DNA of 64,000 nucleotides from Escherichia coli (lineage in GTDB: Bacteria; Pseudomonadota; Gammaproteobacteria; Enterobacterales; Enterobacteriaceae), in the NCBI RefSeq assembly GCF_011045215.1, contig NZ_CP049201.1; one strand, 5' to 3'. Numbering within the stretch: position 1 is the stretch's first letter; every line of letters starts with the position of its first letter. The notes below the pieces were generated by a model. That model was not told the DNA's origin. It searched no databases and worked only from the letters and a program-made list of their open reading frames with translations. Positions 61,227-63,193 of the stretch are shown piece by piece. The translations under genes and the position numbers were made by a program.

Positions 61227-61619
61227 ATGTACGCAAAATCCTTTCTCGCTCTTGATGGCAACGGACGTCTGACGGGCGCCCGTACAGCACAGGCCGCACC
61301 TTATGCTCACTACACCTGCCACTTGTGTGGCAGTGCACTCAGATACCATCCGCAATACGACACTGAACTTCCCTGGTTTGAACACACTGACGACAGGCTG
61401 ACAGAGCACGGTCAACAGTGCCCTTATGTCAGGCCGGAGCGCAGAGAAATACAGTTGATTAAACGTCTGCAGCAATTCGTACCGGATGCCTTACCCGTGG
61501 TGCGTAAAGCCAGCTGGCACTGCAGACAATGTCACCACGATTATTATGGGGAGCGGTACTGCACACACTGCCAGACCGGAGGTTTCAGTCTTCCCCGGAC
61601 AGCTCAGCAACTGTCTTGA
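61227..61619 (+). CDS. Cys-rich double zinc-ribbon protein, 130 aa (paralog A)
   Basis: ORF track; CHLCGS...PWFEH then WHCRQCHHDYYGERYCTHCQTG; paralogous to 62783..63193. Confidence 0.55.
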   Translation: MYAKSFLALDGNGRLTGARTAQAAPYAHYTCHLCGSALRYHPQYDTELPWFEHTDDRLTEHGQQCPYVRPERREIQLIKRLQQFVPDALPVVRKASWHCRQCHHDYYGERYCTHCQTGGFSLPRTAQQLS

Positions 61620-61628
61620 ACGTAAAAA

Positions 61629-62597
61629 TTATGGAGCAACGTGATGGTACGATTCATTCCATTCTTCGTTCTTTCTGAGCATTGCGTTCAGGATAGTCAG
61701 CAGCTTGCGTATACAGGTAACCAGCGCCACTTTTTTGGGTTTTCCTGCGGCAAGCAGTCGCATGTAAAACACCTTTATTACCGGGTTAAAGCGGGTTGCG
61801 ACAAGCGCTGCCATGTACAGGGCTGTTCGCACACCAGCCCTGCCGCCAAAGATGGTTCGTCGCCCTCTCATCGTGCCCGAGTCCCGGTTTACTGGAACCA
61901 TACCGACAAGCGCACTGATTTCACGCCTGGAGAGGTTACCCTGTTCGGGTACTTCCGCCAGCAGCGCAGCAGCCGTCATGGTGCCAACACCTTTAATACT
62001 GCTCAGTCGCTTAGCAAGCTCTTTGAAGTGGCTATGGATATGGCTGTTCATGTCAGCATCTAGTCGCGCAAGCTCGTCTTCCAGTGCTTTGATGATGATA
62101 TTAATGCTTTTCCTGTTCTATGGATGAGCAGGGTGCAACCGGTTTCTCTCGGCAACCAGCATCGTAATCAACTGCCGCCTACGAACTACCATTGCAGTGA
62201 GAACCTGACATTCAGTATCCGGCAGTGCTCTGATAAAGCGTTCCCGCTCCGGATGCCGGTTGAGAACCTCAGCCATCTGGGAAAGCACTCTGGCATCAAT
62301 ACTATCAGTTTTCGCGAGGTATCCCATGGCGCGGGCAAAGTCACGAGCTTGTCTGGGGTTAACCACGGCAAGCTCAAAACCTTCTGCCTGAAGCGCACAG
62401 ACTATGGCGGTTTCAAGTCCTCCAGTGGCTTTCATTAAAACCAGCGCAATGGCGTACATTCTCAACTCAGCAATGATGGCGTCAAAGCCATCACTGTCAT
62501 TGCCGACAGAAAATTGTTCAATAGCGCTGCTGGCGGCAATATCCAGTATCGCTTTCGAAACATCGATATCCACACAAAGTGAACCTGGCTGACTCAT
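61629..62597 (-). pseudogene. IS110-family (IS1111-like) transposase, interrupted by a frameshift
   Basis: N-terminal ORF 62118..62615 (DEDD region, CVDIDVSKA) and C-terminal ORF 61629..62051 ([27 protein letters not shown]...) in different frames. Confidence 0.75.
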
Positions 62598-62782
62598 GAT
62601 TACCCATCCTTGCAAATGCGTTATGGCGTACTGACAACTGTTCGGGTTTCAGATGAGTGGCTCAGTGTATGCGCCATTCGCTGAGCTACGGGCTATGAAC
62701 CCCTTGAGGGATCGGGCTGCATACACCTTGCCAAATCTAATCACAGTTATTTTAACCAATTGTCAAGATACAAGGAGGAGAT

Positions 62783-63193
62783 ATGCGAATTCTGAACTGC
62801 TATATGGCGAATGACAGCAAAGGCCATTTTGTTACGGCGAAAGAAGCCGCGAAGCACAACCGACAGGACGTTTTGTGCTGTGTGTCCTGTGGTTGTCCGT
62901 TAACACTTAAGCGGGGAAATGACGGACAACCGCCGTGGTTTGAACATGACCAGATGACTGTTGCTGCGAAAATCCTGCTGCGATGCACCTGGCTTGACCC
63001 GGCAGAGAAAGAGGCCCGTCGTTTGCATCTGCAGGGCATGACGGTTCCGGATTATACGGTGAAGGTGAGAAAGTGGTTTTGTGTGATGTGTGACGAAGAT
63101 TATGAGGGGGAAAAGTGCTGCCCGCGTTGTGGTACTGGGGTATACAGCAGGGAGGGGGGGCTGCAGGAAGGCAACTGGAAGGATAGGAACTGA
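62783..63193 (+). CDS. Cys-rich double zinc-ribbon protein, 136 aa (paralog B)
   Basis: ORF track; CCVSCGCPL...PWFEH then WFCVMCDEDYEGEKCCPRCGTG; same architecture as paralog A. Confidence 0.55.
   Translation: MRILNCYMANDSKGHFVTAKEAAKHNRQDVLCCVSCGCPLTLKRGNDGQPPWFEHDQMTVAAKILLRCTWLDPAEKEARRLHLQGMTVPDYTVKVRKWFCVMCDEDYEGEKCCPRCGTGVYSREGGLQEGNWKDRN

Follow-up and report, generated by a model that had tools for sequence, protein, structure and literature searches.

A zinc-ribbon gene pair of an Escherichia coli integrative island and the IS621-like element that separates it

The analyzed window is a stretch of 64,000 nucleotides from Escherichia coli (RefSeq assembly GCF_011045215.1, contig NZ_CP049201.1), and the present work concerns two genes toward its end, termed ZnR-A (61227..61619, plus strand) and ZnR-B (62783..63193, plus strand), together with the insertion sequence (IS) of the IS110 family located between them. 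Both genes encode double zinc-ribbon proteins. We consider it probable that a conserved pair of island genes was split here on a single occasion by a now inactive RNA-guided IS, and we infer for the pair an accessory role beside the Rep-like and AlpA-type proteins of the island. The IS-split arrangement is a frequent and ordinary strain polymorphism. The 3.6 kb surrounding ZnR-A, the IS, and ZnR-B are 99.9-100% identical to many E. coli chromosomes, and when the two junctions were searched for separately in 5,426 complete E. coli genomes, both were found in about 650 (~12%), while the flanking genes without the IS occur in thousands of E. coli genomes.

The zinc-ribbon pair

Both open reading frames (ORFs) that an earlier note on this DNA had singled out are present with the motifs it described, namely C31xxC34, PWFEH at residues 49-53, and C99xxC102-x9-C112xxC115 in ZnR-A, and C33xxC36, PWFEH at residues 51-55, and C100xxC103-x9-C113xxC116 in ZnR-B. 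Their suspected paralogy was borne out by pairwise alignment (32% identity over 120 residues, E 5e-16) and by a shared Pfam architecture consisting of DUF7828, a CCHC zinc module (E 4e-31 for ZnR-A, 2e-30 for ZnR-B), and the C4 zinc ribbon Zn_ribbon_11 (E 3e-9 and 6e-18, respectively). The same two models are matched by 42/42 and 41/42 aligned relatives. Within the alignment of these 42 sequences, the conserved positions are C33, C36, F53, H55, C68, W98, C100, C103, C113, and C116 (ZnR-B numbering), and the putative zinc ligands among them (C33, C36, H55, C68, C100, C103, C113, C116) are invariant or at least 90% conserved. From this pattern, the predicted zinc sites are a CCHC site and, after it, a C4 ribbon. 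An AlphaFold model of ZnR-B calculated from the 42 sequences (pLDDT 88.7; an input of 13 sequences gave a poor model with pLDDT 66) displays two small beta-rich zinc modules linked by a helix. In both ZnR proteins, a CoiA-N-like CCHC zinc module (C-x2-C ... WFEH ... C) precedes the helix, after which comes a C4 zinc ribbon.

Where the pair is uninterrupted, as in the strains 98209 (L005) and CFT073 (L006), the ATG of ZnR-B lies 13 bp inside the end of ZnR-A, which argues for co-transcription and probably translational coupling of the two genes. A Klebsiella plasmid carries the genes in the order Gp2, AlpA, ZnR, ZnR and displays the same 13-bp overlap. All-against-all comparison grouped the A-type proteins ("MYAKSF...") into one clade, with 61% identity between E. 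coli and Klebsiella, and the B-type proteins ("MRILNCY...") into another with 48%, while identities between A-type and B-type always stayed below about 30% in this comparison (28-32% overall). ZnR-A and ZnR-B can consequently be considered as anciently diverged paralogs and not as recent duplicates. An old duplication of which both copies have been kept together suggests a joint function. With respect to selection, we determined a dN/dS of 0.16 for ZnR-A versus a diverged allele (L004; dS 0.38) and of 0.04 for ZnR-B versus the CFT073 and 98209 alleles (dS 0.17-0.20); by these ratios, both ORFs can be regarded as real genes under purifying selection. Comparison with the empty-site alleles revealed in addition a jump in divergence across the IS, with dS values of 0.013-0.026 for ZnR-A (61227-61589) and of 0.17-0.20 for ZnR-B (62783-63130), which suggests a mosaic (recombinant) island.

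The family is small: a search of 1.84 billion clustered proteins yielded 288 representatives at E<=1e-3, most of them 120-160 aa long. Among the best 50 of 753 structural neighbors retrieved by Foldseek from AFDB50, almost all are annotated family members (DUF3279, DUF7828, or zinc-ribbon names, or the RNA-polymerase name addressed below), and all with a given organism are Enterobacterales, covering the genera Escherichia, Salmonella, Klebsiella, Citrobacter, Enterobacter, Serratia, Pectobacterium, Budvicia, and Cedecea. The distribution of homologs appears restricted to this order. No homolog was detected by tblastn in 50,697 phage records, nor was there a matching PHROG, while 32 of 72,556 plasmids carry homologs, usually in two copies. 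RefSeq lists the proteins as "putative zinc ribbon protein" or "zinc-ribbon domain-containing protein", and thousands of E. coli genomes have annotated proteins that are identical to them or nearly so. The earlier note had suggested checking other genomes for homologs without the IS, and such homologs exist.

Several further observations were made on individual family members. Many entries in UniProt and the AlphaFold DB bear the name "DNA-directed RNA polymerase, beta subunit/140 kD subunit"; this seems to be a misannotation that has been propagated. Five proteins (P0041, P0039, P0032, P0023, and P0053) are chimeric, their N- and C-terminal parts deriving from different paralogs or alleles with the junction at PWFEH; they may reflect either recombination between paralogs or assembly artefacts. 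One relative (P0194, L011:2797-4161) is fused to a C-terminal region of 310 aa without a Pfam match. The assignment of this region as a second Gp2-like domain was dropped, since BLASTP and Pfam give no support. Lastly, an unannotated ORF of 176-177 aa directly precedes each of the two ZnR genes of one further island (L018:3458-3991 and 5537-6067).

The inserted element and its predicted bridge RNA

As the earlier note had read from the sequence, a transposase gene of the IS110 family lies between the two ORFs; it is encoded on the minus strand. Its halves match the NCBIfam model NF033542 ("IS110 family RNA-guided transposase") at model positions 4-146 and 193-342, representing the DEDD/RuvC-like N-terminal and the Tnp C-terminal domain. 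The frameshift proposed for this gene was not found; instead, 61629..62597 is read on the minus strand (from 62597 to 61629) in one frame with a single TAG at 62118-62120, and RefSeq labels the gene accordingly as having an "internal stop". An intact relative on plasmid pN61 has CAG at the respective codon, and the defect can be regarded as a nonsense mutation, by which the element is predicted to be inactive. The transposase of the pN61 relative shares 30% identity with that of IS621 (E 2e-34).

The non-coding DNA of the element is distributed unevenly, with 175 nt upstream and 21 nt downstream of the transposase gene. This layout would place it in the IS110 subgroup, i.e., the bridge-RNA elements such as IS621, and not in IS1111. 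The former designation as IS1111-like has to be abandoned on this basis, since the upstream region shows homology to the bridge RNA of IS621 and the downstream end is short; a search aimed at inverted repeats was not part of this rejection.

Comparison with empty sites, by which the earlier note had proposed to locate the IS ends, defined them at 61608 and 62772. Homology breaks at 61607/61608 and at 62772/62773, the left flank ending at 61607 and the right flank resuming at 62773. The strains 98209 and CFT073 carry the same island with the Gp2 gene, ZnR-A, and ZnR-B and without the IS. Their empty site holds a single CT, of which one copy is present at each junction in the occupied state (minus strand; 61606..61607 at the right-end (RE) junction, read as AG on the plus strand, and 62773..62774 at the left-end (LE) junction). 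The IS621-like element between the two copies spans 1165 bp (61608..62772, minus strand). With slashes marking the junctions, the empty site reads ACTCAG/GAGGAAATATG, the left junction of the window GCTCAG/CAACTGTC..., and its right junction ...GATACAAG/GAGGAGATATG; read in the same direction as the IS, the target is ...TCTCCTC-CT-GAGCTGTCC. Identical ends (CT/TGTATC... and ...ACAGTTG/CT) bound the pN61 element, which is 74% identical and has the intact transposase.

The insertion point is the CT inside the 13-bp overlap of the two genes. The earlier picture of two ORFs flanking the IS stands insofar as the element lies between the genes, but the IS end at 61608 is actually located inside the ZnR-A ORF, so that the last three codons and the stop of the annotated gene are IS-derived. 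As a result, the C-terminus ...PRTTQEEICEF of the empty site reads ...PRTAQQLS in the window, the last six residues EEICEF being replaced by QLS. ZnR-B keeps its ribosome-binding site GGAGG (62774..62778, plus strand) and its ATG, but is now positioned 1.2 kb from ZnR-A. Both ORFs are still intact, and ZnR-B would have lost its coupling to ZnR-A through the insertion.

A scan of 60000-64000 revealed no Rfam family, even at E<=1, and the bridge RNA was consequently identified by comparison with IS621. As reference, we used the 177-nt IS621 bridge RNA, which is found with 100% match in E. coli genomes directly upstream of the "IS110-like element IS621 family transposase" gene. Guide positions were taken from PMC11208158 and PMC11208160, and the numbering of the IS621 RNA agrees with PMC11208158. 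The predicted bridge RNA region of the window (62602..62739, minus strand), of which the 3' part matches the IS621 RNA, comprises a target-binding module at ~62650-62739 and a donor-binding module at ~62602-62647. A consensus fold of four relatives displays two stem-enclosed internal loops, with the variation concentrated in the first, target-binding loop. All guides are located on the minus strand. The left donor guide ACAGUUGU (62634..62641) pairs with the IS right end ACAGTTG(C) by seven pairs plus a G-U pair, and the right donor guide AUUUGCAAGG (62608..62617; numbering of PMC11208158) is identical to that of IS621.

The right target guide AGCUCAG (62681..62687) is the complement of CT+GAGCT at the insertion site in all seven positions. 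The same holds for the pN61 copy (L002; AUGUAAG, right flank CT+TACAT, 7/7) and for a second plasmid copy (L012; AUAUCAG, CT+GATAT, 7/7), and a chromosomal copy (L013; AUGUAAG, CT+TACGT) reaches 6/7 plus a G-U pair. Judged from these sequences, three differently programmed right target guides covary with their targets, and the exact complementarity in the window fits an insertion that was RNA-guided.

The same dead copy at the same site in ~650 genomes points toward one old insertion. In all three annotated genomes inspected, the IS copy is labelled "internal stop", including two copies that are only 99.4-99.5% identical. One insertion event, not many, would fit these data best. The history we propose starts from a module of the YagK/YfjJ gene, ZnR-A, and ZnR-B in a CP4-type island, in which ZnR-A and ZnR-B would have overlapped and been coupled. 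The 1165-bp element would have inserted once at the CT inside this overlap, its transposase would then have acquired the CAG to TAG nonsense mutation, and the dead element would have been inherited with the island, leaving ZnR-A with an altered tail and ZnR-B uncoupled from it.

Island context, function, and alternative readings

Between 60.4 and 63.2 kb, the window contains a conserved module (YagK/YfjJ Rep-like gene, ZnR-A, ZnR-B) within a CP4-type E. coli integrative island near cobU and tRNA-Asn. In the identical locus of strain 14EC017 (L001), the RefSeq order starts with an Ag43/Cah adhesin, a YeeP-type GTPase, hypotheticals, an AlpA-type HTH regulator, and Hha, continues with an "inovirus Gp2 family protein", a "putative zinc ribbon protein", the IS110-family transposase pseudogene, and a "zinc-ribbon domain-containing protein", and ends with a decayed ISL3 transposase, gene fragments, cobUST, and tRNA-Asn. 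The first gene of the module (60456..61061, plus strand; RefSeq start at 60492 of the window) encodes the YagK/YfjJ Rep-like protein of the "inovirus Gp2 family", with matches to the Pfam models YagK_YfjJ_C (E 7e-48) and REP_ORF2-G2P (E 3e-5).

Among the surrounding genes, one for a Hha/YmoA-family nucleoid-associated regulator (59600-59776, plus strand) is part of the island and lies a short distance upstream of this module. A small ORF with a CxxC...CxxC pattern (60120-60316, minus strand) lies ahead of the Gp2 gene, in the opposite orientation; RefSeq calls it frameshifted in the identical locus, and CFT073 has an annotated hypothetical protein of 66 aa at the corresponding place (matched by position only, not by sequence). 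Downstream of ZnR-B, a decayed ISL3-family transposase begins (63477-64000, plus strand), for which RefSeq records a frameshift and an internal stop. Since CFT073 has this remnant at its empty-site locus as well, it either predates the IS110 insertion or is independent of it.

Neighborhoods were evaluated for nine diverse ZnR relatives with readable flanks. In all nine loci, a YagK_YfjJ gene and an AlpA-type gene are located next to or near the ZnR relative. The respective islands carry an integrase, a GTPase, DUF932, or antirestriction genes, followed by variable downstream cargo that is often defence-like. As a tentative proposal, the pair might form a small zinc-dependent heteromer acting with the Rep-like YagK/YfjJ protein and AlpA, having no catalysis of its own and recognizing DNA structure or Rep in island excision, replication, or regulation. 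A more specific version, which we regard as rather doubtful, would see in the pair a dedicated, previously unrecognized accessory complex of YagK/YfjJ, whose nuclease-free CoiA-N-like module recognizes branched or single-stranded DNA and controls excision or rolling-circle replication.

A number of results weigh against our overall interpretation or parts of it. The left target guide position of the window (GAUCCCUCA, 62705..62713, minus strand) matches its target TCTCCTC+CT poorly, at only 4-5/9 and without the core-pairing CU, so that RNA-guided insertion by this exact RNA is only half supported. Values for other copies are 8/9 (pN61), 8/9 (L012), 6/9 (L013), and 5/9 (L014); loose use of the left target within the clade or decay after insertion could possibly account for the poor match. 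A promoter scan found no promoter-like site reading from the IS outward into ZnR-B. With a median of 7.8, the pI within the family is close to neutral and lends no support to general DNA binding, and a heteromer cannot be obligatory, because some relatives occur singly. Finally, structure and profile searches including the PDB found no solved structure or characterized homolog of the family. Sequence searches with the ZnR proteins in NCBIfam, PHROGs, PADLOC, and PDB returned no useful match either.

Of the alternatives, an assignment of the pair to the accessory cargo of the island, i.e., to anti-phage defence or anti-defence outside its replication and regulation machinery, survives best, although we consider it unlikely. 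The genes adjoin variable cargo often encoding defence-type proteins (SMC/AAA, Cap4/HamA, CTD10/MC6/DUF2326), and the genes after yfjJ in CP4-57 of K-12 are those of the AbpAB defence system. Yet no PADLOC model is matched (the sole hit has an E of 0.09), the ZnR proteins have no enzymatic domain, and their linkage to YagK/YfjJ and AlpA is kept across genera while the downstream cargo changes.

A preference of this IS clade for the A/B junction, with several insertions there, is quite improbable. The target preference considered in the earlier note agrees with the 7/7 match of the right target guide, and same-clade pieces do exist at L004:4001-4068, L003 about 4001-4081, and L014:903-1681, being a solo left end, a solo right end, and a truncated copy directly downstream of a Gp2 gene beside yfjI. 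These occupy other positions in other CP4-type islands, though, and none is found at an A/B junction. The full copies at the junction that were examined share identical ends and the TAG, there is usually one IS copy per genome, and A/B pairs free of the IS occur in thousands of genomes, often more than once per genome. Moreover, a 7-nt match including the fixed CT is expected by chance hundreds of times per genome. CP4-type islands seem to accumulate pieces of this IS clade, but the A/B junction does not seem to be a recurrent target.

We attribute a similarly small likelihood to the ZnR proteins being modulators that bind RNA polymerase in the manner of the double ribbons of RPB9 and TFIIS, or functional analogues of P2 Ogr and P4 Delta. 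P4-type satellites use zinc-finger activators, and the size and the two-ribbon layout are similar. The family profile matches RPB9 across both ribbons and the linker, but only marginally (E 0.004), so that this is a lead only. Least tenable, and in our judgment close to excluded, is the idea that one zinc-ribbon gene was recently duplicated in tandem and that the IS either entered between the two copies or brought the duplication about: two adjacent genes with a common architecture and motifs would suit it, and the earlier idea of a gene pair separated by an IS is right as to the separation, but the low identity of ZnR-A and ZnR-B, the Klebsiella orthologs of each type with the same overlap, and empty sites holding both genes without the IS speak against a recent origin, and a single-copy IS cannot have mediated a duplication by recombination.

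Significance and comparison with known systems

The favored explanation, a conserved pair split once by a now dead RNA-guided IS, requires no new mechanism, and as a common presence/absence polymorphism of E. coli the arrangement is of modest importance. Hundreds of genomes already have these sequences annotated, and neither the protein family nor the IS type is of a new kind. Two by-products deserve attention. The first is an IS621-like element that offers a clean case from nature in which a bridge RNA can be recognized, with a right target guide that covaries with the insertion site among relatives and left-target matching that looks loose. The second is a narrow, uncharacterized zinc-ribbon family that represents an ancient coupled A/B pair with a CoiA-N-like fold, tied to the YagK/YfjJ gene of CP4-type islands. 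The pair offers a starting hypothesis for dark matter of the E. coli "y-ome" type, and its function is the sole part of this locus with some discovery potential; a literature search found no functional study of DUF3279, DUF7828, or YfjJ/YagK.

With the cryptic islands CP4-57, CP4-6, and CP4-44 of K-12 (alpA, yfjI, yfjJ/yagK backbone), the island of the window shares the AlpA-type regulator, the YagK/YfjJ protein, the YeeP-type GTPase, Ag43, DUF932, and DUF905. To our knowledge, the K-12 copies lack the zinc-ribbon pair after yfjJ/yagK.

The inserted element resembles IS621 in the CT core at both junctions, in the long upstream non-coding end encoding a predicted two-loop RNA, in the identical right donor guide, in a near-identical donor end (ACAGTTG-CT-TGTATC in the window, ACAGTAT-CT-TGTAT in IS621), and in the complementarity of the right target guide to the core and the right target. 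It differs from IS621 in that its target is not a REP sequence and that the copy in the window has a nonsense mutation and a poor left target guide. Owing to the shorter non-coding end, the element appears to lack the 5' stem-loop of the IS621 RNA.

Both ZnR proteins are full-length members of the Pfam combination DUF7828 + Zn_ribbon_11 (PF25165 + PF11682, formerly DUF3279). The weak resemblance of the first motif to the N-terminus of CoiA, noted earlier, was substantiated insofar as the N-terminal zinc-finger domain is shared and Pfam CoiA_N matches the family repeatedly, each time below threshold. CoiA is a competence protein of Bacillota. It has been described as a D-loop resolvase that combines a PD-(D/E)XK domain with a small zinc finger at the N-terminus (bioRxiv 10.1101/2024.02.06.579203). 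Searches of Pfam, NCBIfam, and PDB found no PD-(D/E)XK nuclease in the ZnR proteins of 130-136 aa, whose two zinc modules cover the full length. In contrast to CoiA, the ZnR proteins possess neither a nuclease domain nor the CoiA C-terminal region but a C4 ribbon instead, and they are found in Enterobacterales in the context of integrative islands.

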